From the IMG/VR virus record IMGVR_UViG_3300045988_050695, positions 1 through 33,253 of that record: a DNA stretch of 33,253 bases; one strand, given 5' to 3'. This DNA is from a virus. Position numbers and translations under genes: made by a program. Below, piece after piece: positions 3,124-33,253 of the stretch (the stretch's first letter is position 1; the number at the start of each line of letters is the position of its first letter). The notes beneath the pieces were generated by a model, which was not told where the DNA came from, searched no databases, and worked only from the letters and a program-made list of their open reading frames with translations.

Positions 3124-3377
3124 AACGAAACTCTGCGAACGATCTAAAAGACACCATGTGGACATTCCTGATGGACTACGGACAGGAAGCGGACATACAG
3201 TCGCTGAAAGAATATGTCTATGACTTGATTGGAATGACCACACAAAAGACCGCCGGCCAGCGGAAAACGAAAAAGGATATAAACTGGGTTGAATTAGAAC
3301 CAACATTGATGGCGATCGTGATCGAGGCAACCTGTTTAGTACTATCCGGCCGGCTGGATGAACTGGAGGAGAAATGA
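3120..3377 (+). CDS. Hypothetical protein
   Basis: ORF in the operon frame. ATG 3120 overlaps the upstream stop (ATGA) with GGAGG upstream. I recognise no motif. Confidence 0.6.
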   Translation: MKRNSANDLKDTMWTFLMDYGQEADIQSLKEYVYDLIGMTTQKTAGQRKTKKDINWVELEPTLMAIVIEATCLVLSGRLDELEEK

Positions 3378-3910
3378 GATTTCACTTATTCTTTGAACAA
3401 TCAGGCACATTTAAGAACGAATTAAGGAAGCTGGGCCATGAAGCAATAGACTATGACATCTTAAACGATTTTGGGCAGACTGATGTAGTCATAGACATAT
3501 TTTCAGAAATCGAGAAATCCTATGCGGGGTGGGGTAGCATTTTCGACAATATAGCCGAAGATGACATGATAATAGCGTTCTTCCCCTGCGTTCGATTTGA
3601 AGCCCGAATAATAATGAATATGAAAGGAGTTCATTATGGCAGTGAAAAGTGGAGTGATTTGAAAAAAATCGAATACAGCATGAGACTGCATAGCGAGTTG
3701 GCGCACATGTACCAATTGATATCAAAACTGGTCATCGTGTGCATAAGAAAGAAAATAGCCTTGGTAATAGAAAACCCATACAGTAGTCAGCACTACCTCA
3801 CACGGTACTGGCCGCTAAAGCCGGCAATCATAGATCACGACCGCCGGCGTGACGATGACGGTACTGATTGGGTCTGGGAAGACATTGAGGAAGGTGGAAA
3901 AGATGAATAG
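3374..3910 (+). CDS. Hypothetical protein with faint C5-methyltransferase-like core motifs
   Basis: LFFEQSGTF (motif I-like), IIAFFPCVRF (PC motif-like) and LVIENPYS (ENV-like) occur in the canonical order. There is no recognisable TRD or motifs IX/X. The acidic C-terminus is atypical. Confidence 0.6.
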   Translation: MRFHLFFEQSGTFKNELRKLGHEAIDYDILNDFGQTDVVIDIFSEIEKSYAGWGSIFDNIAEDDMIIAFFPCVRFEARIIMNMKGVHYGSEKWSDLKKIEYSMRLHSELAHMYQLISKLVIVCIRKKIALVIENPYSSQHYLTRYWPLKPAIIDHDRRRDDDGTDWVWEDIEEGGKDE

Positions 3911-4340: not shown

Positions 4341-5552
4341 ATGAAGTTTTTAGATTTTTTGCAGGAATCGGCGGGTTTAGGCTGGGCATGGAAATGGCAG
4401 GCCATGAATGTGTAGGTCATTGCGAAATTGATAAATTCGCCGATAAAAGTTACAGAGCAATGCACAAGATAAAGGAGAGTGAATGGTTTGCAAGTGACAT
4501 TACAAGAATTAAACCCGGAGAGCTTCCAGAAGCTGACTGTTACTGCTTCGGATTTCCATGCCAGGCTTTCAGCATTGCTGGAAACCGACGAGGCTTTGAA
4601 GATACTCGCGGGACTCTGTTTTTTGAAGTCATGCGGTTGGCTAAAGAGCGAAAGCCTCGTTTACTTTTCGCCGAAAATGTTAAAGGACTTCTTAACCACG
4701 AGGGGGGGGCAGACGTTCGGAATCATCATCAACGCCATGGATGAATTGGGGTACGATGTCGAATGGCAGGTGCTTAACAGCGCAGATTTCGGAGTCCCCC
4801 AAAACAGGGAGAGGGTGTTTATTATCGGACATCTTAGAGGATCAAGTGGACGAAAAATATTTCCCATCAGAGACAGCGACCGCACATCTGCTGGGTTTTC
4901 GCGACAAACAGCAAATACCATTACCACGCGAACCGGAGAATCGCAAGGGGTCGGAACGTATGTTGCTGAAAGTGAACAGCCGGCACAGATTAAACAGATT
5001 ATCGGCGGAAGCCAGGGACGAAGAGTCTACGATCCAGAAGGATTAAGCGTTACGCTGAGCAGTCAAGACGGCGGTTATGGAGATAGAACGGGACTATATG
5101 CCGTCCCGGTGTTAACGCCGGACAGGATAAATAAACGACAGAACGGCAGGAGATTTAAAGAAAACGGCGAGCCTATGTTTACGCTTACAGGGCAGGATAG
5201 GCACGGAGTAATGATCAAAGAAGCAACGGCAAAAGGATATGCCGAAGCAAATGAAGGCGATTCGATAGATTTTGCTAATCCGGGCAGTACAACCCGCAGA
5301 GGCAGAGTGAAAAAAGGAGTTGCAAGCACACTTGATACGAGATGTCAGCAGGACGTTTTGACCGGATATAAAATCCGCAAACTGACACCTCGCGAATGCT
5401 TCCGCTTACAAGGCTTTCCGGATGACTACTTTGACCGAGCTGCCACAGTTAACAGCGATAGCCAGCTGTATAAGCAGGCAGGAAATAGTGTAACTGTAAA
5501 TGTTGTTTATGAAATAGCGAAGAGGCTAAAAACAAAAAAACTGGACCTTTAA
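4341..5552 (+). pseudogene. dcm: DNA (cytosine-5) methyltransferase, interrupted by two compensating homopolymer frameshifts (T6 at 4355-4360, G8 at 4702-4709)
   Basis: All motifs are present but spread over three frame segments. These are MKFLDF / FAGIGGFRLGMEMAGHECVGHCEID (I), GFPCQAFSIAG (IV), ENVKGLL (VI), QNRERVFIIG (VIII), RKLTPRECFRLQGFPDDY (IX) and QAGNSVTVNV (X). The ATG with an RBS is at 4341. Confidence 0.85.
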
Positions 5553-5589
5553 AAAGTTAAAAACTAAAACAGTAGGATAGGAGGAGAAA

Positions 5590-6039
5590 ATGACAAATTT
5601 TGAAAAATACAAAGATGAAATACTGGAAATCATAGAATATAACACTATCGCAGTTGATACCAAAAAAAACAAGCCTCAAAGCTGTAATGAGATGCGTTGT
5701 TCACAATGCATACGATATAGCGACGATGGGCATTGCAGATTTCTGAATTTCTTCAAATGGCTCTATGAAGAAGCAAAAGAGTCGCTTCCTGCCCTAACCT
5801 TAAAAGAGCGAGGATTTTGTGAGATTATCGAAAATGGATTCATAGCGCGAGACCAAAATGGTAGCCTCTGGCTGTTTGATATGATGCCGGCAAAGGAAGA
5901 TGATTACAACATTACCTGGTGGAACAGTGCAAATGGCAGATATAAACGGTTGGATGGTAGGGCGTTCACGTTTATCACTTGGGAATCAGACAAGGCGTGG
6001 AGTATAGAAGAACTGCTACAGTTGGAGGTAGAGGGATGA
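5590..6039 (+). CDS. Hypothetical protein; N-terminal Cys-rich domain paralogous to 2947..3123 (B2)
   Basis: AGGAGG lies upstream. The N-terminal 60 aa align with the 58-aa ORF. The C-terminal domain (FIARDQNGSLWLFDMMP...FITWESDKAWSIEELL) has no function known to me. Confidence 0.75.
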   Translation: MTNFEKYKDEILEIIEYNTIAVDTKKNKPQSCNEMRCSQCIRYSDDGHCRFLNFFKWLYEEAKESLPALTLKERGFCEIIENGFIARDQNGSLWLFDMMPAKEDDYNITWWNSANGRYKRLDGRAFTFITWESDKAWSIEELLQLEVEG

Positions 6040-6680
6040 AGCTGAAACCATGCCCGAACTGCGGCAGCAGCAGAGTGTACATATGGCACATATGCACGGC
6101 GCGGCTGCCGTGGTGGCACTACGCCGAATGTGAGGACTGCCATTGGTGCGGGAAGACAAAGCTTTTTCGCCGGCGTGCAATAAGATCGTGGAATAAGGAG
6201 GGAAAAAATATGATAGATGAAAATAAACTGCTGGAAGAGGTGCAAAAACGGATAAATTATTGGGACGCCAAAGCCGCCGAATGCGACGAAGCTGGTTATT
6301 TGGAAAATATGGATATATGCGACGGTAAGGCGATGGAAATGCGTGAGGTCGTAAATTTCATAAAGGAATTACAAAATATGACCGACGACATTGAGAAAAA
6401 CCCAAAAAAAGAGAAATTGAAAAAGATCGCCGATCATTACGGTTTACAAGCACAAAAAGGAATGCTCATCGAAGAGATGGCTGAGCTGATGCAGGCAGTC
6501 AACAGGTTTGACCGCAATACAACCGAAAAAAACTTAGACGCTATCGCCGAAGAGATCGCAGATGTTGAAATCATGATCGCACAAGCTAAGTATTTATACG
6601 TAATTCCGCAAGAAAAAATTGACGAAATCACAGATTACAAGATACAGCGTACACTTGAAAGAATGGAGGTAGACCAATGA
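6036..6680 (+). CDS. Lar-like restriction-alleviation zinc-ribbon domain fused in frame to a MazG-like nucleotide pyrophosphohydrolase domain
   Basis: MKLKPCPNCGSS...ECEDCHWCG...RRRAIRSWNKEG fits the Lar family pattern (KPCPFCG...C..C...AI.AWN.R). The C-terminus LIEEMAELMQAV...AIAEEIADVEIMIAQAKYLY fits the MazG EE..EL / E..ADV motifs. There is no stop between them. An internal AAGGAGG-ATG lies at 6210. Confidence 0.6.
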   Translation: MKLKPCPNCGSSRVYIWHICTARLPWWHYAECEDCHWCGKTKLFRRRAIRSWNKEGKNMIDENKLLEEVQKRINYWDAKAAECDEAGYLENMDICDGKAMEMREVVNFIKELQNMTDDIEKNPKKEKLKKIADHYGLQAQKGMLIEEMAELMQAVNRFDRNTTEKNLDAIAEEIADVEIMIAQAKYLYVIPQEKIDEITDYKIQRTLERMEVDQ

Positions 6681-6997
6681 ACAAACGCGTTTTTTTGCGA
6701 AATTACGAAGGCGAAAAAACCGCCATCGAAATTCCTGATTTTGAAAATGTAACGCGGATGAGAGTTGAGATAATAACGGGGGACGAAATTCTCTTTGTGC
6801 AATATGACAGCCAGCACGTTACAAAATATGATAGCGCAGAAGATAGAATGATAGACTTTTTCGATGAATGGTACGAATTACCAAAAGAGCTTATCGACGA
6901 GTTTTCCGCATATGAAGGAACACCGTATGAGTGTTCCGAACACATCCGCAAGCTAAAATGGATAGACACGTGGTGGATGAAAAACACGAATGAGTAG
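6677..6997 (+). CDS. Hypothetical protein
   Basis: ATGA overlap with the upstream gene, in operon orientation. No motif recognised. Confidence 0.6.
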   Translation: MNKRVFLRNYEGEKTAIEIPDFENVTRMRVEIITGDEILFVQYDSQHVTKYDSAEDRMIDFFDEWYELPKELIDEFSAYEGTPYECSEHIRKLKWIDTWWMKNTNE

Positions 6998-7016
6998 AAG
7001 CTGAAGGAGAATAAAA

Positions 7017-7226
7017 ATGAGACATGTATTTGCAACAAACGAAACCGTCGAAGTTATAACGCTTGAAATCTGCGAGGGATGTGAGTTCGCGAGTTTTCAA
7101 AGTCTTGATCGTGAAATTTATTATGAAAACAAAGCAGTAATGATAAGACAATTCATAGAGTGTTCGCTTTATCGCGTTTGCATAAGGGCAATGGAAGAAA
7201 CACAGAAGCTTATAGACAAGGACTGA
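7017..7226 (+). CDS. Hypothetical protein
   Basis: GGAG lies upstream of ATG 7017. 69 aa, no motif recognised. Confidence 0.5.
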   Translation: MRHVFATNETVEVITLEICEGCEFASFQSLDREIYYENKAVMIRQFIECSLYRVCIRAMEETQKLIDKD

Positions 7227-7314
7227 AAAAAATCTACTTATATATATAAGAAAAAACTGGCGCTCGGTATGAGCTTTCGAGCTTGTAATGAGTAGTAACA
7301 AACGGGGGAAGAAA

Positions 7315-8163
7315 ATGTACAGACAAAAAAAGTATATAATGAAAAACTACATGGAAGTAGAAATCTTCCCCGTGCCGGAAAAGGTTAAGCCATACAAAAG
7401 AGCGGTAAGAGAAACGGGGACAAGCCCGGCACAAAAAAAACTGAACGATAAAAAAGCGGTAAAATATCTTAACCGCCTTGTTCATACGAACTTCGACGAG
7501 CAAGATCTGTTTGTCGACTTAACATTCGATGAGAAAAATCTGCCAAAAGACAGAAAAGACGCGCAACGCGTTGTAAGAAACTACATAGACCGCTTACGCC
7601 GGGCAAGAAAAAAAGAGGAGTTAGACGAGATAAAATATATCTATGTCATATCGGACAGCGATGAGCTTGGCAACAAGAAAAGACTGCACGTCCACATGAT
7701 AATGAACGGCGGTCTTGATCGGGACAAAATAGAAAAAACGTGGCATTGCGGATATTGCCAGACCGACAGATTACAGCCGAACGAGTACGGAGTAACGGGA
7801 AAGGTTATGTACATGGCAAGGCAGTCAAAAGGCGATCGCATGTGGTCATCGAGCAAAAATCTAAAAAAGCCCGTTGCTGTTGTAAGCGATAAGGCCATCA
7901 CGAAGGCAAAAGCTGCGGCCATAGAAAGAAACCCGGAAGACAGGGCTTTCTTTGAAAAGATATTTCCCGGATGGACATTTACCGACTGCATTGTCGAATA
8001 TCCAGACGACGAAGGATTAAAGAGAGGAACAAGCTTTTTAATCCGAATGAGAAAGGAAAAACAATGGACGAAAAAGAAAAAAAGAGAATTAAAGTCTACT
8101 TGCAGGGCTACGGACGAGAAGAAGAGAAACTCCGGCAGATCGAAGCGGAAATCGACTACATAA
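7315..8163 (+). CDS. HUH-superfamily Rep-like endonuclease (putative)
   Basis: There are three motifs in canonical order and spacing: FVDLTF (motif I), RLHVHMIMNG (HUH) and GKVMYMARQSK (catalytic Tyr motif). ATG 7315 follows GGGGGA, and the listed 7288 start is less likely. The basic tail overlaps the next gene by 100 nt. Confidence 0.5.
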   Translation: MYRQKKYIMKNYMEVEIFPVPEKVKPYKRAVRETGTSPAQKKLNDKKAVKYLNRLVHTNFDEQDLFVDLTFDEKNLPKDRKDAQRVVRNYIDRLRRARKKEELDEIKYIYVISDSDELGNKKRLHVHMIMNGGLDRDKIEKTWHCGYCQTDRLQPNEYGVTGKVMYMARQSKGDRMWSSSKNLKKPVAVVSDKAITKAKAAAIERNPEDRAFFEKIFPGWTFTDCIVEYPDDEGLKRGTSFLIRMRKEKQWTKKKKRELKSTCRATDEKKRNSGRSKRKSTT

Positions 8164-8498
8164 ACCAGACGATAGACAGCACCTCGCAAATCTTTGACGG
8201 AATGCCGCGCGGGAGCGGAATCTCTGACAAAACGGCAAGAGAGGCACAGAGACTTTGCGACTTATCCATTGACCTTATAGAACAACGATTTGAAGCAGCG
8301 ACCAAAAGAAAAGAGATAGGAGATACCATAAGAAGCGTAGAGGATACCAAGTATATGAGACTACTCTATCTTAGATACATAGAACTAAGATCATGGGGTA
8401 AGGTGTCCGAAGAAATGGGGATCAGTCCGCGATGGATATTTGACATGCACAATAAGGCACTTGAAGAAATTGCAGAAAAAATAACGATACCGCATTGA
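8064..8498 (+). CDS. Late-gene transcriptional regulator, sigma-70 region-4-like (DUF1492/ArpU-RinA-like position)
   Basis: MPRGSGISDKT...KYMRLLYLRYIELRSWGKVSEEMGISPRWIFDMHNKALEEI matches the DUF1492 / sigma region 4 HTH pattern as I remember it. It is located just before the HNH-terminase module. Confidence 0.6.
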   Translation: MDEKEKKRIKVYLQGYGREEEKLRQIEAEIDYINQTIDSTSQIFDGMPRGSGISDKTAREAQRLCDLSIDLIEQRFEAATKRKEIGDTIRSVEDTKYMRLLYLRYIELRSWGKVSEEMGISPRWIFDMHNKALEEIAEKITIPH

Positions 8499-8530
8499 AC
8501 CATCAGTGTGCGAGGTGATATGATTATAGC

Positions 8531-8824
8531 GTGGAAAAGAAAAAATATGGAAGCGAGCGTTGGAAGAAAAAAAGGAACAGAATACTTCGGCGCGATAAGT
8601 ACATCGACAAGATAGAAGCACGATATGGGAGGACAGTGGAGGCAACAATGGTCCACCATATCTTTCCGGCTGATGAGTATCCGGAGCTTTTCTGGACAGA
8701 TTGGAACCTGATAAGTGTAAGCAGGGCAACCCATCAGAGACTGCACAACAAAGACGGCAGTCTTTCCGATTTCGGCGAAGAGCTGCGAAGACGAACAGGA
8801 GAAAAAAATGGACTTAAAAGATAA
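8531..8824 (+). CDS. HNH endonuclease (packaging-associated type)
   Basis: W.KKRNRILRRDKY...ATMVHHIFP...WNLISVSRATHQRLH is an HNH core. The GTG start has GAGGTGA upstream. The position upstream of terS/terL is typical of cos phages with HK97-like heads. Confidence 0.8.
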   Translation: MEKKKYGSERWKKKRNRILRRDKYIDKIEARYGRTVEATMVHHIFPADEYPELFWTDWNLISVSRATHQRLHNKDGSLSDFGEELRRRTGEKNGLKR

Positions 8825-9062
8825 ACTGATAAAGGTAAAAGAAAAGATTGTAACGGGAGAAACAACTATAAAAGACATAGACACAATAAACGAGATCATA
8901 AAAGATATCGAGAAGATAGAAAAGATCGTTGAAAACTTTTCGCCCGAACTAAACGAAAGCGAAGAGATGATCGGTTCACTCTTACAACCTGGGATCACGA
9001 TTGACACTGTGAATATTTACTTTTTTGGCAGCGATAAAGAGGCAGAAAATGAAGCAGAGTAA
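8808..9062 (+). CDS. Hypothetical acidic protein
   Basis: 84-aa ORF overlapping the HNH stop, rich in E, K and I. No motif recognised. Confidence 0.45.
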   Translation: MDLKDKLIKVKEKIVTGETTIKDIDTINEIIKDIEKIEKIVENFSPELNESEEMIGSLLQPGITIDTVNIYFFGSDKEAENEAE

Positions 9063-9433
9063 AGGAAAGAAAGCAAAGAGGATAAACGACTTGAAGCAGA
9101 GCGGGAAGATATCCCCCCCTCCCTCAGACCCTCCTCTCTGCCCTTGCCTAATGCGACGGGTAAAACTCTTTCCAACTCTGACATGATTTTAAGAAATAGG
9201 GACAAGATGAATTGATAAGTAAAGAGTTAAAAAAATATTATACATTTTATGACAGGAAAAAACGACAGAAAAAAAGACTCAAAAAAACAGGAAAATGACA
9301 TTTAATTTTATGTCAAAAAATATACAAAAAGTAGGCGTTTTTCATTCAGTTTTTTTAACAGTCAGCCTCCTCTCTTCTAAACACCTACTCGCTCCGGGGC
9401 GTAGCGAACAACGCCCCACAAATAAGAGAACGT

Positions 9434-9468
9434 ACCGCGATGTGCTTCGGCCTCGCGGTCTTTTATTG
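9434..9468 (+). terminator. Stem-loop plus T-run (intrinsic-terminator-like) 9 nt upstream of the ParB-like gene
   Basis: ACCGCGA (9434-9440) pairs with TCGCGGT (9453-9459). The loop contains GC-TTCG-GC and is followed by CTTTTATT. A second hairpin GGGGCGT/ACGCCCC lies at 9396-9417. Confidence 0.5.
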
Positions 9469-9476
9469 GAGAAATA

Positions 9477-10751
9477 ATGAACAAGTTAAAGATAGTTTAC
9501 AAAAAGATAACGGACATACACCCATATGAAAATAACCCAAGAAAGAACGAGAAGGCAGTGGATTTTGTGGCAAACTCGATTAGTGAGTTTGGATTTCGAC
9601 AGCCCATCGTGATCGACAAAGATAACGAGATAGTAGCCGGCCACACGAGGTACAAGGCTTCGCAAAAGATTGGATTAGCTGAAGTGCCTTGCGTCTATGT
9701 CGACGATCTGACGGAAGAACAGGTAAAAGCCTACCGCCTCGCGGACAATAAGACCATAGAGCAGTCCGAGTGGGACAGTTTAAAACTGGACGAAGAACTT
9801 GAAGGAATCGGCAATCTTGACATGAGCCTTTTCGGATTCTTTCCTGTTGAAGAAATTGATTTTAAAAATCTCGGCGACATGGCGGAAAGCAATGAAGAGT
9901 ATGAAGAGTTTACCGAGAAGTTCAAGCCGAAAAAAACAACTGATGACTGTTACACGCCGCCCGCTGTTTATGAAGCAGTAAAGAACTGGGCAGTTAAGGA
10001 GTACAATCTTAATGGGCGCAAAGTAGTCAGGCCGTTTTATCCGGGCGGGGATTATGAAAAATATAAATATCCAAAAGATTGCGTTGTAATCGACAACCCG
10101 CCGTTTTCAATACTCGCGCAAATTAAAAGATTCTACGCCGAAAGAAAGATCGACTTCTTTCTTTTCGGTCCGGCAAAAACACTATTTGCAAGCGAGGAAT
10201 GTTGTTATATTTTGACAAATCAAGAAATCACTTATGAAAATGGCGCAAAAACCTACAGTGCATTTGTGACAAATCTCGACGAGGCGAGAATCAGAACCGC
10301 ACCTGATTTAGCGAGAATGATACAAGAGGCACAAGAAAATAACGCGGTAAATTTTCCGAAATACGATCATCCGAACAATGTAATCACTTCCGCAAGACTG
10401 GGAAAGATTGCCAATTATGTAGAATTAAAAATCTATCCGGAGCAGTGCCATTTTATCCGGCAGCTTGACTCCCAAAAAGAAAGCGGAGCCGCTCTTTTCG
10501 GCGCTGGATTCTTGTTATCCGAAAAAGCCGCAGCCGAAAAAGCCGCAGCCGAAAAAGCCGCAGCCGAAAAAGCCGCAGCTAAAGAAGTAACTGTGTGGGA
10601 GCTATCCGAAAGAGAAAAGAAGATCATCGAGGAGATGAGCAAAAATGAAAGCGACGACCTACGAAAAAAGAATAATAAAGGCAATGAAGACCGTAGGCAC
10701 ATACAAGCCGGAGTTCAGTCAGGCAATCAAGACACTGGCGAAGATTTATGA
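9477..10751 (+). CDS. ParB/Srx N-terminal domain protein with an NPPF-containing (methyltransferase motif IV-like) central domain and EKAAA x4 helical linker
   Basis: IHPYENNPRKN...FGFRQPIVIDKDNEIVAGHTRYKA...AYRLADNK is a ParB-like nuclease domain. Downstream lie CYTPPAVYEAV...RPFYPGGD...CVVIDNPPFS. The tail overlaps terS by 107 nt. Confidence 0.65.
   Translation: MNKLKIVYKKITDIHPYENNPRKNEKAVDFVANSISEFGFRQPIVIDKDNEIVAGHTRYKASQKIGLAEVPCVYVDDLTEEQVKAYRLADNKTIEQSEWDSLKLDEELEGIGNLDMSLFGFFPVEEIDFKNLGDMAESNEEYEEFTEKFKPKKTTDDCYTPPAVYEAVKNWAVKEYNLNGRKVVRPFYPGGDYEKYKYPKDCVVIDNPPFSILAQIKRFYAERKIDFFLFGPAKTLFASEECCYILTNQEITYENGAKTYSAFVTNLDEARIRTAPDLARMIQEAQENNAVNFPKYDHPNNVITSARLGKIANYVELKIYPEQCHFIRQLDSQKESGAALFGAGFLLSEKAAAEKAAAEKAAAEKAAAKEVTVWELSEREKKIIEEMSKNESDDLRKKNNKGNEDRRHIQAGVQSGNQDTGEDL
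10521..10580. repeat. 15-bp tandem repeat GAAAAAGCCGCAGCC x4 (encodes EKAAA x4)
   Basis: Units at 10521, 10536, 10551 and 10566, with a single C>T difference in the last unit. Confidence 0.95.
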
Positions 10752-11004
10752 ACAGTTCGACCAGGCAAAAGAACAGTTCGAGAGAACTGGCGGCGAGTAT
10801 GTGGTAAAGCACACGAACAAGAATGGAAATACGAACATTATAAAAAACCCGCTATATAGAATCCTTGAAGAAATGGAGGAGAAGATCTTGGCATACAACA
10901 GAGAGCTTGGCTTAACCCCGTCCGGGTATAAGCGCATAATGAATAAATTTGAAAAAGAAAAACACTCGGAACTTGCCGAGGCGTTAAAGGCACTTGGAAG
11001 CTAA
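10645..11004 (+). CDS. terS: Terminase small subunit, P27 family
   Basis: GAGGAG lies upstream of ATG 10645. [31 protein letters not shown] matches the P27-family terS C-terminal signature. It lies directly upstream of terL. Confidence 0.75.
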
Positions 11005-12754
11005 AAACTGGCGGGAGGTTCTGGAGTACGCCGAGAGTATAAGAGACGGGAAAAAGATAGCGTGTAAGGAGCTGAAGCAGTGCGTTGACAGGTTTTTTAA
11101 AGATTTAAAAAATCCGGCTTACTGGCTGGATAAAAAAGCCCCTGAGTTCTGTATCGGAATAATAGAAAAAACGCTAAAACACCAACAAGGAGAAGACCTC
11201 GAAGGACGCCCCATGCAGGGTCGTCCTTTTATATTGCAGCCATTCCATAAGTTTATTGTCTACAACATTGTGGGATTTAAACATAAGGACTCAGACATTT
11301 TAAAATATCACGAAGCTCTGATCTTCGTACCGCGAAAGAATGTTAAAACGACTTTTGCGGCTGCCCTTGCCTGGTCTCTTTCCTTGTACTACCGCCGTAG
11401 TGGGTCAAAAGTGTATGTTACATCAGCTGCCCTTATGCAGTCGCTTGAAAGTTTTAACTTTCTAACGTATAACCTTGACCGCATGGGAGAAAGCGAAAGA
11501 AAAGGTGGCGGTGTAAAGATAATCGACAATAACAATGAGCACTCAATCAAGGCGGATTTCCCGGACGGATCAATCTTCATTCGGGCGCTTGCCGCTAATG
11601 CGGACGCGCAGGATTCTCTAAACTGTAATATCGCGATTGCTGATGAAATGCACGCGTACAAAAAGCCAAAGCAGTACAATCTGTTTAAAGAGGCTATGAA
11701 AGCCTATACCAATAAACTGATGATCGGCATTTCCACAGCCGGAGACAACGAGCAATTGTTTTTAGGACAAAGGCTGAAATACTGTCGTAAAGTCTTAGAC
11801 GGCACCGTCGAGGACGAACAGTATTTCATTTTCATGACCTGCGCCAACCCGGACGAGGCCGGCAATATAGATTTTACAAGCCCAAAGGTACACGAAATGG
11901 CCAATCCCTCATACGGAGTAACTATCCGGCCGCAGGAAATATTAAACGAGTCTTTGCAGGCACAAAACGACCCGCAGCAAAGAAAAGACTTTTATGCAAA
12001 AAGTCTAAACGTTTACACGAACTCGATAAGGGCATATTTCGACATTGAAGAGTTCAGGAAGTCCGACAAAAAATACAGATGGACACTCGACGAGCTGGCA
12101 AAGCTGCCGATAAAGTGGTACGGCGGCGCCGACTTGTCAAAGCTGCATGACCTCACAGCCGCCGCGCTCGTTGGAGTGTATAAAGACGTAACGATAGTAA
12201 TCACCCACGCTTTCTTCCCGGTCGTTGCCGCGCACGTAAAGGCGGACGAGGACAACATACCGCTTTTTGGCTGGGCAGAAGACGGCAATTTAACGTTATG
12301 CAACTCGCCGACGGTCAACTACTCGGACGTGGTTAACTGGTTTTTAACAATGAAATCCAAAGGGTTTAAAATCACGCAGATAGGACACGACCGAAAGTTC
12401 GGCCGTGAATTTTTCATTGACATGAAAAAGTCAGGATTTCGAATTGTCGATCAGCCTCAGTATTATTTCAAAAAATCCGAAGGATTTAGATACTTGGAGA
12501 AAGCCGCAAAAGACGGCAATCTATACTATCTTCATTCTGACGCTTTTGAATACTGCGTCCAAAATGTGGCGGCAATAGAAAAGACCGACGACATGATCCA
12601 GTATGAAAAGATCCATCCGGAGCTAAGAATTGATTTATTCGACGCCGCCGTATTCGCGGCAATAAGATATTTGGACAATTTAGAAAGATCACAAAAGGGA
12701 AAGGACTGGTGGGGAGACAGTGAGCAAAAAGAAAAGCAGAAAAACAAGAGATGA
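10994..12754 (+). CDS. terL: Terminase large subunit (Terminase_1 type)
   Basis: 586 aa with an N-terminal ATPase region ([24 protein letters not shown]) and a C-terminal nuclease region. It has a TTG start overlapping the terS stop. Synteny is terS-terL-portal. Confidence 0.9.
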
Positions 12755-26368: not shown

Positions 26369-27469
26369 ATGAAAAGATTCGGAATTGACATAAGCGCATG
26401 GCAGTCTGACTATCCTTACGCAGGGGCAAAAAAAGAGGGCGTAGAGTTCGCCATCATCCGAGCGGGCTATCAGGAGACGAAAGATAAGCAGTTCGAGACC
26501 CACTACAAGGCGGCCAAAGAGCAGGGATGGGATGTGGGGGCATACTGGTATTCCTACGCGACAACCGTCGCCAAAGCAAAGGCAGAAGCAAAAGCTTTCC
26601 TTTCCGCCATCAAGGGGAAGAAGTTCGAGTTTCCTGTCTATATGGACGTAGAAGACCCGTCTATAAAAGGCCTTGGGAAAGAAGCTTTAAACGACATCAT
26701 CGAGGCCTTTGGCGAAGTGATAGAGTCCGCCGGGTACTACTTCGGAGTTTACACGAATGTCGATTGGTTCAGGAATAAGATTTCCGGGTCGAGCCTGAAC
26801 AAAAAGTTCGATTGGTGGATTGCGCAGTGGGCAAAAGAAGCCCCGACCGGCATAGATTATGGTGTGTGGCAGTTCGGCGGAAGCACGAACCTGATCAGAT
26901 CGGCCAAGATCGCCGGAGTAACTACGGATCAGAACTATTGTGTGAAAGACTACCCGGCAATCATCAAAGAGGGCGGTTTTAACGGCTATGGAAAGCCTGA
27001 AAAGGAACCGGAGAAAGAACCGGAAAAGAAGCCGGAAAAAGAGCCGGAGAAAAAGCCCGCCGCCTCCTCGATCAAGCTGTCGAACGAACCTCTTTACGCC
27101 TCCGCCACCGCAAAAGAAGCCGCCGGAAAGGTATCCGGCACCTATTACTACTGGGATTCTCAGGTAGTCAGCGGCAGGAGGAGGATCACGAATGCAAAGA
27201 GCAGGATAGGAAAGGCCGGACAGGTAACGGGCTGGATCGCCGTCAACAAGACGAGTAAGCCGCAGCTCAAAAGAGGATCTGAGGTCAATCTTAAAAACTG
27301 CCCGCTGTACGCCTCTTCCACAATAACAGCCGTGGCAAGTAAGGTATCCGGTAAATACTACCTCTGGGACGGCAAGCCGTTAAACGGCCGTTACAGAATC
27401 ACCAATTCTAAAAACAGGGTAGGAGTAGCCGGACAGGTTACGGGCTGGATAAATATCGAGGACATTTAA
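26369..27469 (+). CDS. Endolysin: GH25 muramidase + PEK-rich linker + two SH3-like cell-wall-binding repeats
   Basis: FGIDISAWQ...FAIIRAGY...VGAYWYSY...PVYMDVED are the GH25 blocks. The linker is KPEKEPEKEPEKKPEKEPEKKP. It is followed by two ~55-aa repeats (PLYAS...KVSG.YY.WD......R.RITN.K.R.G.AGQVTGWI). Confidence 0.9.
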   Translation: MKRFGIDISAWQSDYPYAGAKKEGVEFAIIRAGYQETKDKQFETHYKAAKEQGWDVGAYWYSYATTVAKAKAEAKAFLSAIKGKKFEFPVYMDVEDPSIKGLGKEALNDIIEAFGEVIESAGYYFGVYTNVDWFRNKISGSSLNKKFDWWIAQWAKEAPTGIDYGVWQFGGSTNLIRSAKIAGVTTDQNYCVKDYPAIIKEGGFNGYGKPEKEPEKEPEKKPEKEPEKKPAASSIKLSNEPLYASATAKEAAGKVSGTYYYWDSQVVSGRRRITNAKSRIGKAGQVTGWIAVNKTSKPQLKRGSEVNLKNCPLYASSTITAVASKVSGKYYLWDGKPLNGRYRITNSKNRVGVAGQVTGWINIEDI

Positions 27470-27894: not shown

Positions 27895-28314
27895 CTAATC
27901 TACGCTTTCGATCGTCACGATTCTCGGATCAAGAACCGCCAGTACGACGGCGTTCTCACCCTCGACTATATTGGCGACGCCCATATCGCGAAGATTTTCA
28001 AACCTTACGCAGTCGTAGCCGCGTTTTTTTGCAAACGCCGCGATTGTCCAGGTTGACCACCAACTCTGGCACTCATTCGCATACTCGCTCATCAACTCCC
28101 AATCCTTGAACCACGGCAGATCGCTCCAGCACTCGCCCCCACAGTCAAGAGTGAGCAGGTTTTTAGGCTCAATCTCAACCTCGTAAAAATGTTCAGCGGC
28201 ATACGAACGAGCCACATTTTCGCTTGTCGAAAACCATGCACCCGTGCCGTTCTCGCTCTCTGCTAAAAACTCTTTAAATATCTTTTCACTCTTGCTGCCG
28301 TGGTAAGCTTTCAT
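27895..28314 (-). CDS. ADP-ribosyltransferase-fold-like protein (ART-PolyVal-like, tentative); accessory gene
   Basis: The N-terminal KAYHGSKSEKIFKEF, GAWFSTSENVARSYA, a later KKRGYDCVRFE and the terminal VLAVLDPRIV recall the YHG[ST]..F..F / G.[FW]F[ST]....A..YA / GYD / vv.dp.i pattern of phage/plasmid polyvalent-protein ART domains (memory only). It has its own consensus promoter and a terminator. Confidence 0.35.
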   Translation of the reverse strand: MKAYHGSKSEKIFKEFLAESENGTGAWFSTSENVARSYAAEHFYEVEIEPKNLLTLDCGGECWSDLPWFKDWELMSEYANECQSWWSTWTIAAFAKKRGYDCVRFENLRDMGVANIVEGENAVVLAVLDPRIVTIESVD

Positions 28315-28362: not shown

Positions 28363-28391
28363 ATTATATACGCATTGCGTATAAATGTCAA
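28363..28391 (-). promoter_or_regulatory. Consensus promoter TTGACA-17-TATAAT with 17-bp palindromic operator TATACGCAATGCGTATA in the spacer (copy 1, upstream of the 139-aa gene)
   Basis: On the minus strand the -35 is 28391..28386 and the -10 is 28368..28363. The palindrome is 28367..28383. The element overlaps the stop codon of the HTH gene. Confidence 0.75.
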
Positions 28392-28582
28392 GGGGTTTTA
28401 GAAAATTTTTTCCCAATTTCTTCGATTTTTTCTATCACTAATCGTTCAACATAATCGGGCGGTTTCCGGTTCCCCAGCTCCCAGTCCTGCAATGTCCTTG
28501 GCGGTATGCCTATCTCTTTGCAGATCGTTTCACGGGATAGCCCGGCAGCCTGACGGGCTTCTTTAATAGCGTTCTTTTCCAT
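28388..28582 (-). CDS. Xre-family helix-turn-helix protein (64 aa); candidate repressor/antitoxin/controller
   Basis: AAGLSRETICKEIGIPPRTLQDWELGNRKPP is a classic Xre/Cro-type HTH. AAGGAG lies 5 nt upstream of ATG 28582. Confidence 0.8.
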   Translation of the reverse strand: MEKNAIKEARQAAGLSRETICKEIGIPPRTLQDWELGNRKPPDYVERLVIEKIEEIGKKFSKTP

Positions 28583-28713
28583 ACATGCTCCTTATTTTTT
28601 CTTACTTTGCTTTAACGCCGCTAATGCAACTATCAGGGCGGCTATGCTGATGTCGTTAGGTCTATCAGGGATTTTAATGTTTCCATCTTCGCTTACCTCC
28701 TTTCCATGATTCT

Positions 28714-28742
28714 ATTATATACGCATTGCGTATAAATGTCAA
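28714..28742 (-). promoter_or_regulatory. Consensus promoter TTGACA-17-TATAAT with the same 17-bp palindrome (copy 2, upstream of the HTH gene)
   Basis: On the minus strand the -35 is 28742..28737 and the -10 is 28719..28714. The palindrome is 28718..28734. It is 33/33 nt identical to copy 1. Confidence 0.75.
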
Positions 28743-28849
28743 GGGGGCGAAAAAAATTTATGAAAAGCTCCTTTTGATGGTATTCTACTATTAGTATAGA
28801 AAAAAATCAACGAAAAAACGAAAAAAATCTAAAAAAAATAGAAAATATA

Positions 28850-28878
28850 TTGACACTCTAATTAAATTAGACTATAAT
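28850..28878 (+). promoter_or_regulatory. Consensus promoter TTGACA-17-TATAAT with 15-bp palindrome TCTAATTAAATTAGA in the spacer (early rightward promoter)
   Basis: The -35 is 28850-28855, the -10 is 28873-28878 and the palindrome is 28857-28871. A second TATAAT lies at 28884-28889. Confidence 0.75.
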
Positions 28879-28910
28879 CATAGTATAATTTGATGAAGGA
28901 GGAAAAAAAA

Positions 28911-29111
28911 GTGCAGTTGACAATGAAGCAAGCGAGAATTGGGGCCAACTTAACCATGCAAGAGATTGCTGAAAAAATGGGGATTCATTATCAAACCTAT
29001 AGCCGAATGGAAGCTCATCCGGAAGATGTGACCATAAAAGAAGCATATAAGTTTGCTGAAATTACAGGATTGAATTTTGAGGATATTTTTTTCGGTTGCA
29101 AATCTAATTAA
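28911..29111 (+). CDS. Xre/Cro-like helix-turn-helix protein
   Basis: MKQARIGANLTMQEIAEKMGIHYQTYSRMEAHPEDVTIKEAYKFAEITG is an Xre HTH. AAGGAGG (28896-28902) lies 8 nt before GTG 28911. The listed TTG 28890 start lies within or upstream of the RBS. Confidence 0.8.
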   Translation: MQLTMKQARIGANLTMQEIAEKMGIHYQTYSRMEAHPEDVTIKEAYKFAEITGLNFEDIFFGCKSN

Positions 29112-29117
29112 ATTAGA
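29103..29117. promoter_or_regulatory. Second copy of palindrome TCTAATTAAATTAGA, overlapping the Xre stop codon, flanked by degenerate promoter hexamers (TTGCAA ... TTACCT)
   Basis: It is an exact 15/15 match to 28857-28871. The TAA stop of the Xre gene (29109-29111) lies inside it. Confidence 0.8.
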
Positions 29118-29161
29118 ATTACCTATTGAATATTTCTTAGAGGAGTAGGAAAGGAGACAGG

Positions 29162-29737
29162 ATGACAAAAGAACAGTTAAACAAGGTTTTAGAAAAGCAT
29201 AAGAAGTGGCTAAATGATGAACCTGGTGGAGAGCGAGCAGACCTCTGGGGAGCAGACCTCTGGGGAGCAGACCTCCGGGAAGCAGACCTCCGGCGAGCAG
29301 ACCTCCGGGGAGCAAACCTCTGGGGAGCAGACCTCCGGGAAGCAGACCTCCGGGGAGCATACCTCCGGGGAGCAAACAACATACCTGATTATGTATGCCC
29401 TATATGTTGCCCGGAAAAAGGCTCTTTTATTGGATTCAAAAAAGCCATCGTATTTAATTGGCATACAGAAGTAATTGTTGAATTAGAAATTCCAGCCGAG
29501 GCCAAGCGAAGCTCAGCTACCAATAGAAAATGCAGATGTAGTAAAGCAAAGGTGTTATCGATAACAGATTTTAGTGGTGTAGCTGAATTTCAAATTGCAG
29601 TAAGCAATTATGATAATGATTTCATTTACGAAGTGGGCAAGACTGTAGTTGTTGATGATTTTGACGAAAACAGATGGAATGAATGCTCAACTGGCATACA
29701 TTTCTTCATAACCAGAGATGAGGCTGTTAACTATTGA
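29162..29737 (+). CDS. Pentapeptide-repeat protein with conserved C-terminal domain of unknown function
   Basis: About 10 consecutive A(D/N)L-x-x pentapeptides ([47 protein letters not shown]). These are followed by [16 protein letters not shown]...[10 protein letters not shown]...[21 protein letters not shown] lies upstream. Confidence 0.85.
29235..29377. repeat. 15-bp tandem repeat (GAGCAGACCTCYGGG), about 9.5 copies
   Basis: Units start at 29235 and recur every 15 bp to 29369, with only 1-2 substitutions per unit. All six frames are open across it. Confidence 0.95.
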
Positions 29738-29801
29738 GGTAAAACGATGAAAGTTTACATAACAAAATCAGAATTAAAAACGCAGTCTGGGGGTGTCGTA
29801 T

Positions 29802-30392
29802 ATGAAAAAGTATAAAATCCGTGAGGGTAGCCTGTTGTGGGCGCTGAAAAGATTTTGGTTCGTGTTTGTCGGCGCAGCCATTCTGGTATGGCTGGCGTTT
29901 CCAGCACCACAAGAAGCACAGGCAGAGATCAAACTGCCGGAGGCCGAGCCGGTCGCCGCAACCGAACAGGCCCCGTTGTATGATGTACCGCTATCAGCCG
30001 ATCTGCAAGAACATATCAGCGAATTGTGCGACGCTAACGGCGTGGATATGTCGCTGGCGTTGGCGATTATTGGCCAGGAATCCAATTACCGGCCGGACGC
30101 CGTGGGAGACAACGGGAATAGCCTCGGACTAATGCAGATACAGCCGAGATGGCACCAGAGCCGCATGGACAAGCTGGGCGTGACCGATCTGTTAGACCCA
30201 TATCAGAATGTTACCGTAGGGATTGACCTGCTGGCCGAACTGATAGAAAAGGGAAACGGCACTGAGTGGGCGGTCACTGCCTACAACGCCGGAACTGCCG
30301 CCGCCGACTATAACCGCGCAATCGGAACAAGGACAGAATACGCTGAAAGCGTGATGAAGTTAAAAGAATCCTTAGAAAAGGAGCTAATATGA
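29802..30392 (+). CDS. Secreted/membrane-anchored lytic transglycosylase (SLT domain)
   Basis: It has an N-terminal signal/TM segment (FWFVFVGAAILVWLAFPAPQEAQA). This is followed by ALAIIGQESNYRPDAVGDNGNSLGLMQIQ...AYNAG, the SLT catalytic Glu-Ser and AYNAG blocks. Confidence 0.8.
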   Translation: MKKYKIREGSLLWALKRFWFVFVGAAILVWLAFPAPQEAQAEIKLPEAEPVAATEQAPLYDVPLSADLQEHISELCDANGVDMSLALAIIGQESNYRPDAVGDNGNSLGLMQIQPRWHQSRMDKLGVTDLLDPYQNVTVGIDLLAELIEKGNGTEWAVTAYNAGTAAADYNRAIGTRTEYAESVMKLKESLEKELI

Positions 30393-32784: not shown

Positions 32785-33253
32785 ATGGAAGACATGACAT
32801 ACATAAAGATTTACCGTAAGAGCTTGCAGAATGAGATCTTCCTTGAATTACCATTCGACAGATGGCACGCGTTTATGTTTCTACTGTTAAGCGCCAGACG
32901 CTTCCCCACTATCGTGATGATAAAGGGCAAAAGCATAACCCTTGACACCGGGCAGCTGATCTACGGAGATGACACATTAGCTGAGCGCTGGGGTTGGTCG
33001 AGGGGCAAGGTAAGACGGTTTTTGAGCCTGTTAGAAGACCTAGAAATGATCAAAAAAAACGGTACACCTTATGGGACAGTTATAACCATAGAAAACTATT
33101 CAAAATACCAGTGCAACGATACACTATGCGGCACACCTGTACCCGCTGAAATTCCAACAGATGCGTGCGAGGGCGGTACAGCAGACGGTACATCGCACGG
33201 TACAGCAGACGGTACATCGCACGGTACAGCAGACGGTACATCGCACGGTACAG
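32785..33253 (+). CDS. Replisome organizer / DnaD-like replication initiator, N-terminal part (continues at base 2 after circular closure)
   Basis: GAGGTGA lies upstream of ATG 32785. MEDMTYIKIYRKSLQNEIFLELPFDRWHAFMFLLLSARRFPTIVMIKGKSITLDTGQLIYGDDTLAERWGWSRGKVRRFLSLLEDLEMI is a typical wHTH organizer N-domain. The frame is still open at the window end, inside the GTADGTSH repeat. Confidence 0.8.
   Translation, partial: MEDMTYIKIYRKSLQNEIFLELPFDRWHAFMFLLLSARRFPTIVMIKGKSITLDTGQLIYGDDTLAERWGWSRGKVRRFLSLLEDLEMIKKNGTPYGTVITIENYSKYQCNDTLCGTPVPAEIPTDACEGGTADGTSHGTADGTSHGTADGTSHGT
33175..33253. repeat. 24-bp tandem repeat GGTACAGCAGACGGTACATCGCAC, 3.3 copies (same array as 2..79)
   Basis: Units at 33175, 33199 and 33223, partial at 33247-33253. 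The last 56 nt of the window equal the first 56 nt. Confidence 0.95.

Follow-up and report, generated by a model that had tools for sequence, protein, structure and literature searches.

An early phage gene that joins a rapidly remade pentapeptide-repeat array to a conserved DUF5758 domain

The window analyzed here is the whole of the IMG/VR virus record IMGVR_UViG_3300045988_050695, a stretch of 33,253 nucleotides, and its element of interest is an open reading frame (ORF) that begins with ATG and encodes a 191-amino-acid (aa) pentapeptide-repeat protein (PRP) ending in a DUF5758 domain (PRP-DUF5758; Table 1). An initial annotation, made from the letters of the sequence, had described an early pentapeptide-repeat gene with near-identical 15-bp repeats, and the ORF list, Tandem Repeats Finder and Pfam all bore this out. 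The Pfam Pentapeptide model (PF00805), a family hidden Markov model, matched at 70.8 bits against a cutoff of 20.2 (E = 6.6e-20). Tandem Repeats Finder reported a 15-bp period at 29235-29374 (9.3 copies, 90% matches, score 224) and a higher-order period of 60 bp at 29233-29377 (2.4 copies, 95% matches), the latter equal to one full coil of a pentapeptide beta-helix. By the codon table there were nine canonical units in register; the tenth of the roughly ten consecutive pentapeptides first counted is a degenerate one, ANNIP. In the repeat units Ala is always encoded by GCA and Leu by CTC, and the eight deviations from the consensus, every one of them nonsynonymous, are confined to the three outward-facing positions. 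The Cys-rich C-terminal domain of the initial annotation is likewise present (6 Cys in the last 119 aa), and it turned out to be a named Pfam family, DUF5758 (PF19062), matched at 136.9 bits against a cutoff of 26.9 over profile positions 3 to 105 of 105. The window gene is a genuine member of a very large, already catalogued viral family of PRP-DUF5758 proteins.

A full-length AlphaFold model, built from an alignment of 50 sequences, had a predicted local distance difference test score (pLDDT) of 83 and placed a helix at residues 3 to 17, a strand at every fifth residue across residues 27 to 67, and an all-beta C-terminal domain with a final helix at residues 185 to 190. Compared with the Protein Data Bank (PDB) by Foldseek, the repeat part superposed on HetL, MfpA, Np275 and Rfr23 with root mean square deviations of 0.4 to 1.7 Å over 45 to 49 residues, and the modeled repeats have the form of a right-handed quadrilateral beta-helix. 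With moderate confidence, the protein can be described as a cap helix, a right-handed quadrilateral beta-helix of about 2.3 coils, and the conserved C-terminal DUF5758 domain. The whole model matched only pentapeptide-repeat proteins in the PDB, with no match for the C-terminal domain. Modeled alone, that domain had a pLDDT of 83 and a predicted template modeling score of 0.79, and it was without a fold relative in the PDB (best E value of 0.9, template modeling score [TM] of at most 0.24); its profile found nothing among PDB sequences at E values up to 10, and NCBIfam held no match for it. The domain might have mapped to a well-known unrelated function, an outcome that the initial annotation had named as contrary to its proposal, and it did not: Pfam lists it as a DUF family, and neither the PDB nor NCBIfam matched it. 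Among predicted viral structures (BFVD) there were 36 matches with E values below 1e-3 (down to 4.6e-9) and TM of 0.6 to 0.78. These included giant-virus proteins named as MORN-repeat, pentapeptide-repeat, RING-finger or HEAT-repeat proteins, as well as several paralogues in Acidovorax phage ACP17. One bacterial-virus representative (P0264) carries DUF5758 fused to a YdcK-type solenoid.

Conservation was read from 153 representatives, each standing for one cluster at 50% identity. The Cys and His residues conserved in at least 85% of them are C83, C124, C175 and H180, and the basic residues conserved at that level are K93, R116, R122, K123, R125 and R171. Others include P84, G87, F89, S118, S148, F154, Y156, G159, F167, E174, G178, I179, F181, F182, E187, A188 and Y191. 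DUF5758 is a mobile, conserved module that usually follows a repeat scaffold. Its Cys3-His set, together with the basic cluster, suggests a metal-stabilized domain that may bind a ligand or nucleic acid.

The family is large. A word-indexed search with the full-length protein gave 7,996 matches, the best 120 of which were all PRP plus DUF5758 proteins of 174 to 324 aa, unnamed or called "hypothetical." The C-terminal domain alone returned the same set along with stand-alone DUF5758 proteins of 100 to 124 aa. An exhaustive profile search with this domain found 6,209 clusters (50% identity) at E values up to 1e-3 and 877 at E values up to 1e-30, and the domain was almost always C-terminal in them. 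Matches in reference genomes were mostly from gut and rumen Clostridia (Lachnospiraceae, Oscillospiraceae and Christensenellales). The C-terminal domain matched 160 records of GenBank phages, 152 of them mycobacteriophages; the many mycobacteriophage members examined belong to cluster E, genus Kostyavirus, and are annotated "pentapeptide repeat protein." DUF5758 was found in 7 of 72,556 plasmid records, all seven non-mobilizable replicons and six of them larger than 900 kb. The literature searched contained no mention of DUF5758 and no function for PRP-DUF5758 proteins.

The repeat number had been expected to vary between isolates, and a search for length polymorphism in related genomes found just that. 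There were 119 pairs of proteins with C-terminal domains at least 97% identical (many 100%) that differed in array length, by 5 to 105 aa, and every one of the 119 differences was a multiple of 5 aa (15 bp), with the reading frame always kept. For example, two members (P0002 and P0004) differ by two repeats, and two others with identical C-terminal domains (P0014 and P0034) differ by nine. A constraint of whole coils (20 aa) on array length was considered and rejected, with multiples of 20 in just 27 of the 119 differences. Across the family, repeat counts run from 0 to 34 without a whole-coil preference, and the rotation of the cap helix relative to the C-terminal domain is therefore not conserved. 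Ala and Leu codons are near-uniform within an array and differ between arrays of different lineages (GCA, GCC, GCT or GCG; CTG, CTT, TTG, TTA or CTC). This codon pattern is a hallmark of concerted evolution, in which arrays grow back again and again from a few units. These comparisons show that 15-bp slippage or unequal recombination keeps building and rebuilding the array, and that array length evolves far more quickly than the remainder of the protein. A published instance is that of phages L and ST64T, which are more than 99.9% identical and differ by one 15-bp pentapeptide unit in orf232 (PMC8022706). An exact-word search for phages near-identical to that of the window found none in IMG/VR and three metagenome contigs, all with different arrays.

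Substitutions within arrays were counted in two ways. By cells, there were 1,387 nonsynonymous and 251 synonymous differences. By distinct single-nucleotide variant types in 41 non-redundant arrays, an omega-like ratio, which ignores transition bias and the relatedness of the arrays, came to 1.39 at exposed positions (p = 0.03) and 0.62 at buried ones. Strong positive selection on the exposed repeat positions was not retained as an explanation at so low a ratio and so modest a p value. The counts point weakly to exposed faces that may be little constrained or mildly diversifying.

Table 1. Positions of the PRP-DUF5758 gene, its parts and its operon neighbors in the window
Feature	Position	Strand	Evidence or remark
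Early rightward promoter, TTGACA-17-TATAAT	28850..28878	+	12/12 consensus match; function suggested by position
Operator-like near-palindrome TCTAATTAAATTAGA, copy 1, in promoter spacer	28857..28871	.	Exact repeat
Cro-like helix-turn-helix (HTH) regulator	28890..29111	+	Pfam HTH_3, E 8.1e-10; PHROG transcriptional repressor
Operator-like near-palindrome TCTAATTAAATTAGA, copy 2, spanning HTH stop codon, 45 bp 5' of PRP gene	29103..29117	.	Exact repeat
Shine-Dalgarno AAAGGAG of PRP-DUF5758 gene	29150..29156	+	Read from sequence
PRP-DUF5758 gene, 191 aa	29162..29737	+	ORF list; Pfam; thousands of homologues
N-terminal cap helix, aa 1-24	29162..29233	+	AlphaFold helix 3-17, pLDDT ~90; segment conserved in relatives and in ST64T Orf-232
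15-bp tandem array: nine canonical pentapeptide repeats (aa 26-70) and one degenerate	29235..29377	+	Tandem Repeats Finder, codon table, PF00805, model, Foldseek
DUF5758 domain, aa 81-188, all-beta with C-terminal helix	29402..29725	+	Pfam E 2.9e-40; models, pLDDT ~83-94; conservation in 153 representatives
SLT lytic transglycosylase with N-terminal hydrophobic segment, next operon gene	29793..30392	+	Pfam SLT, E 1.6e-20; linkage to PRP gene confined to close relatives

The PRP-DUF5758 ORF lies directly 3' of the Cro-like HTH gene, whose listed start is a TTG at 28890 and whose likelier start is a GTG at 28912, preceded by AGGAGG. Its position makes it the first gene to follow the Cro-like regulator, in agreement with its earlier designation as the first cargo gene of a rightward early operon. 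The 15-bp TCTAATTAAATTAGA had four matches, both strands counted, against 0.1 expected. The strong promoter ascribed to the HTH gene is there, along with the duplicated operator-like site, and the HTH gene may, as had also been proposed, regulate itself. A stretch of about 500 bp (28363-28878) holds three perfect (12/12) sigma-70-type promoters, one rightward and two leftward. The leftward ones, at 28742-28714 and 28391-28363, face a 64-aa HTH gene and an ART-PolyVal ADP-ribosyltransferase gene. The latter (139 aa, 27895-28314, minus strand; Pfam E = 7.8e-8) has the 12/12 promoter at 28391-28363 as its own, stands where relatives carry an integrase and repressor module, and has a very weak, sub-threshold likeness (E = 0.029) to the model of the anti-CRISPR ADP-ribosyltransferase AcrIF11. 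It may be a better anti-defense candidate than the PRP gene. The SLT lytic transglycosylase, whose hydrophobic segment would be a signal or membrane segment, sits in the early operon and not in a lysis or tail module, and the same arrangement is found in two close prophage relatives (L001 and L002).

Those two prophages carry an integrase and a CI-like repressor on one strand and, on the opposite strand, a Cro-like HTH gene, PRP-DUF5758, a small ORF and SLT (two genes 3' of the PRP gene), followed further 3' by ERF, YqaJ and SSB. In a third prophage (L066), the PRP gene is the first called gene opposite the repressor, and in distant phages it stands amid many small unknown ORFs. Upstream neighbors in relatives include ANT, Bro-N and SSB, and the downstream neighbors are ordinary early genes (Sipho_Gp157, ERF, methylases, RecT, YqaJ, dUTPase and SSB). 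SLT, Gam and exonuclease were each considered as a conserved partner and rejected, being linked in just 2 to 5 of 61 loci (SLT in 4 of 61). In an Acr-Aca operon a small acr gene comes first, an aca HTH gene whose product represses the acr promoter comes after it, and relatives keep this linkage. The likeness to such an operon that had been proposed did not survive: the HTH gene of the window lies upstream, at an immunity switch opposite a divergent HTH gene, and an HTH gene was immediately upstream in only 7 of 48 relatives, too few for a conserved partner. Tandem paralogues occur, with two PRP-DUF5758 copies in each of L024, L060/L061 and L067. A 37.9-kb contig of an uncultured Lachnospira metagenome-assembled genome (CAMZGB010000001.1; L031) carries, at 5521-11184, a cluster of at least five PRP-DUF5758 paralogues, all on the same strand. 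On a 161-kb contig (L065), Pfam matches to Tad3 and Sequestin lie at 6534-7217 and 7824-8435, 2 to 3.5 kb 3' of PRP-DUF5758; both are named in recent papers on phage inhibitors of nucleotide immune signaling.

The window as a whole is a complete siphovirus-type genome, whose kin are prophages of Clostridia from gut and rumen. The contig is whole and circular, and its ends share 3.3 copies of a 24-bp unit, CGGTACAGCAGACGGTACATCGCA (1-79 and 33174-33253); this is an assembly overlap, in which the true copy number of CGGTACAGCAGACGGTACATCGCA may be collapsed. Directly after the CGGTACAGCAGACGGTACATCGCA block, at 85-133, are 4.8 copies of a 10-bp repeat, AAAGAATGAT, and this iteron-like block, just 5' of a helicase-loader-like gene (324-917), may be a replication origin. 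The gene set comprises a large terminase, portal, major head protein, tape measure, tail proteins and endolysin, with an early region of Gam-like protein, exonuclease, HNH, helicase loader, SSB, several DNA methyltransferases, RusA and a replication initiator. The DNA-methyltransferase matches fall in three early ORFs (1931-2482, 3374-3910 and 4479-5552), and the ORF at 5979-6680 matches NTP pyrophosphohydrolase and Lar-like restriction-alleviation families, so that the phage seems to devote much of this region to escaping restriction. The window ORFs scanned included no integrase, and the close relatives are integrated prophages with an integrase and a CI-like repressor. A ParB-like protein is encoded at 9477-10751, and what stands opposite the Cro-like gene is just a 64-aa HTH gene; the window phage may be a non-integrating or virulent derivative. 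Other in-frame coding repeats are a 27-bp unit in 5.9 copies at 1153-1311 (ORF 956-1531), a perfect 15-bp unit, CCGAAAAAGCCGCAG, in 4.1 copies at 10519-10579 within the ParB-like ORF, and a 12-bp unit in 5.5 copies at 26992-27057 in the endolysin ORF, probably in a linker. By blastn, the locus was without a close relative among GenBank phages, and the PADLOC anti-phage defense models had no match to the window protein at E values up to 0.1.

The initial annotation had taken the protein for a DNA mimic, that is, an anti-restriction or anti-defense factor whose B-DNA-like beta-helix ties up restriction enzymes or other defense proteins that bind DNA. The fold is indeed that of the known mimics MfpA and Qnr, the gene is early, the phage appears to invest heavily in anti-restriction through its methyltransferases and Lar-like match, and the Orf-232 of Salmonella phage ST64T, which has similar repeats, adjoins ral. 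However, the repeat domain carries a net charge of only -1 to -2; across the family the charge averages -0.18 per repeat and, for whole proteins, spans -26 to +9. The roughly 2.3 coils of the domain measure some 11 Å, the length of a few base pairs at most; array length is free, from 0 to 34 repeats in quarter-turn steps, and constraint on the exposed positions is weak. In Ocr and ArdA the acidic patterns are conserved. Neither of these proteins was matched in sequence (Pfam) or in fold (Foldseek against the PDB), and the family, unlike ArdA, is rare on plasmids. Mimicry by the repeats would also leave the most conserved part of the protein, the C-terminal domain, unexplained. We consider DNA mimicry quite improbable. 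A related proposal is that of a Qnr- or MfpA-like modulator of DNA gyrase or topoisomerase IV, which would shut down or protect the host enzyme early in infection. There are weak local matches to MfpA and Qnr repeats, and a Listeria phage paper makes a like guess for another phage pentapeptide-repeat protein (PMC12282133). The NCBIfam Qnr and MfpA models, however, scored 14.7 to 21.6 bits against cutoffs of 240 to 500, with matches confined to generic repeats, the helix is far shorter than that of Qnr or MfpA, and a different C-terminal domain takes the place of their dimerizing helix, so that a gyrase modulator seems very unlikely.

The protein could instead serve the phage's own early program, as an accessory factor in lysis-lysogeny control (antirepressor-like), replication or recombination, with DUF5758 binding phage DNA or protein rather than a host target. 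The slot directly after Cro often holds cII or antirepressor genes, ANT, Bro-N and SSB are among the upstream neighbors in relatives, recombination and replication genes lie downstream, and DUF5758 has conserved basic residues. Yet the family spans phages with unrelated regulatory circuits and giant viruses as well, no partner gene is conserved, and tandem paralogue amplification with rapid array turnover is more typical of conflict genes; we hold such a function to be unlikely. That the gene is dispensable and without a selected function, its array being neutral junk, would fit the near-neutral evolution of the exposed repeat positions and the unconstrained array length. It is extremely hard to believe in the face of some 35 near-invariant C-terminal positions across the 153 representatives, of buried repeat positions held at an omega of 0.6, and of a frame kept by all 119 indels, each a multiple of 15 bp.

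The reading that we favor, at somewhat less than an even chance, is that of an early host-interaction factor, in which the conserved DUF5758 is the core and the beta-helix a variable scaffold. The strong early promoter would drive transcription of PRP-DUF5758 at the start of the lytic program. DUF5758 would be the functional core because it is the conserved part, can occur alone and is fused to unrelated repeat scaffolds in giant viruses. The Cys3-His set and the Lys/Arg cluster could form a metal-stabilized pocket or surface for a phosphate-bearing ligand (nucleic acid or nucleotide) or for some universal target, and the beta-helix would be a rigid scaffold of variable length, whose weakly constrained exposed faces serve as a spacer or as a changeable protein-binding surface. 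The most likely role would then be early host interaction, whether takeover or counter-defense, by binding and not by DNA mimicry. An early context is common to the window operon, the three prophages described above, gp54 of mycobacteriophage Bruin and ST64T Orf-232 in its PL operon. A general anti-defense or host-takeover role is plausible because of this early placement, the paralogue amplification, the array turnover and the one anti-defense neighborhood, that of L065. Our confidence in the biological role itself, that of an early factor directed at the host or at a universal target, is low.

Several points weigh against host interaction. The early replication and recombination neighbors would be explained equally well if the protein served the phage's own regulation or DNA metabolism. 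Anti-defense islands were rejected as the usual context, the Tad3 and Sequestin linkage being seen in L065 and in none of the other loci fetched. The putative metal site is argued from residue conservation, and the second structure model was built from just 8 sequences. The omega of about 1.4 is weak and fits neutrality. Literature searches on DUF5758 and phage pentapeptide-repeat proteins found no experiment on any family member. In a broader form of the proposal, DUF5758 would be a pan-viral domain with a binding or effector function, found in giant viruses as well as in phages of several bacterial phyla, and no relative of its fold has been solved. With its interchangeable scaffolds it would define a new class of early takeover or counter-defense proteins, in which the pentapeptide array is a rapidly regenerating, length-variable bait or spacer kept by 15-bp turnover; we think this rather doubtful.

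The family matters more than this one gene, which adds little beyond one more member. Among the uncharacterized families of early genes that phages of gut Clostridia carry, PRP-DUF5758 is one of the more abundant; about 150 cultured mycobacteriophages have it too, and by fold it reaches giant viruses. Were its role indeed host takeover or counter-defense, a widespread module would be added to that repertoire, and the array would show clearly how repeat turnover can tune the working surface or the length of a protein. The useful output of the analysis lies in the negative result on DNA mimicry and in two tractable relatives, Bruin gp54 and 244 gp59.

These two proteins, from cluster-E mycobacteriophages (about 150 GenBank records), are among the closest known counterparts, with the same PF00805 plus PF19062 architecture (DUF5758 E = 2.5e-29) and a C-terminal domain 49 to 51% identical to that of the window protein. 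In Bruin, an integrase, a repressor and two tiny ORFs precede PRP-DUF5758, with an exonuclease and Erf further 3'; the gene stands, as in the window, at the start of the rightward early operon. The mycobacteriophage protein differs in its longer and more degenerate array (281 aa), its other N terminus and its actinobacterial host. Orf-232 of the Salmonella P22-like phages ST64T and L has the same cap motif, L..IL.EHK.W....G.RADL, followed by ADLRG/TNLRG repeats. In ST64T it is encoded between ral and gene 17 in the early left PL operon (L064, 11086-11784, minus strand), and it differs in that its C-terminal domain is not DUF5758; the N-cap and repeat module thus appears to combine with different C-terminal domains. 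Giant viruses (Klosneuvirinae, Mimivirus and Pithovirus) have a DUF5758-like C-terminal fold (TM of 0.6 to 0.78), in some proteins with pentapeptide repeats, but with MORN, RING or HEAT partners in others, eukaryotic hosts and only 13 to 39% sequence identity. Qnr, MfpA and AlbG share with the window protein the right-handed quadrilateral beta-helix of A(D/N)LXX repeats. They are dimers of about 8 to 10 coils, with an electronegative surface and a C-terminal dimerizing helix, whereas the window protein has about 2.3 coils of near-neutral repeats in place of a long electronegative helix, and ends in DUF5758 instead.

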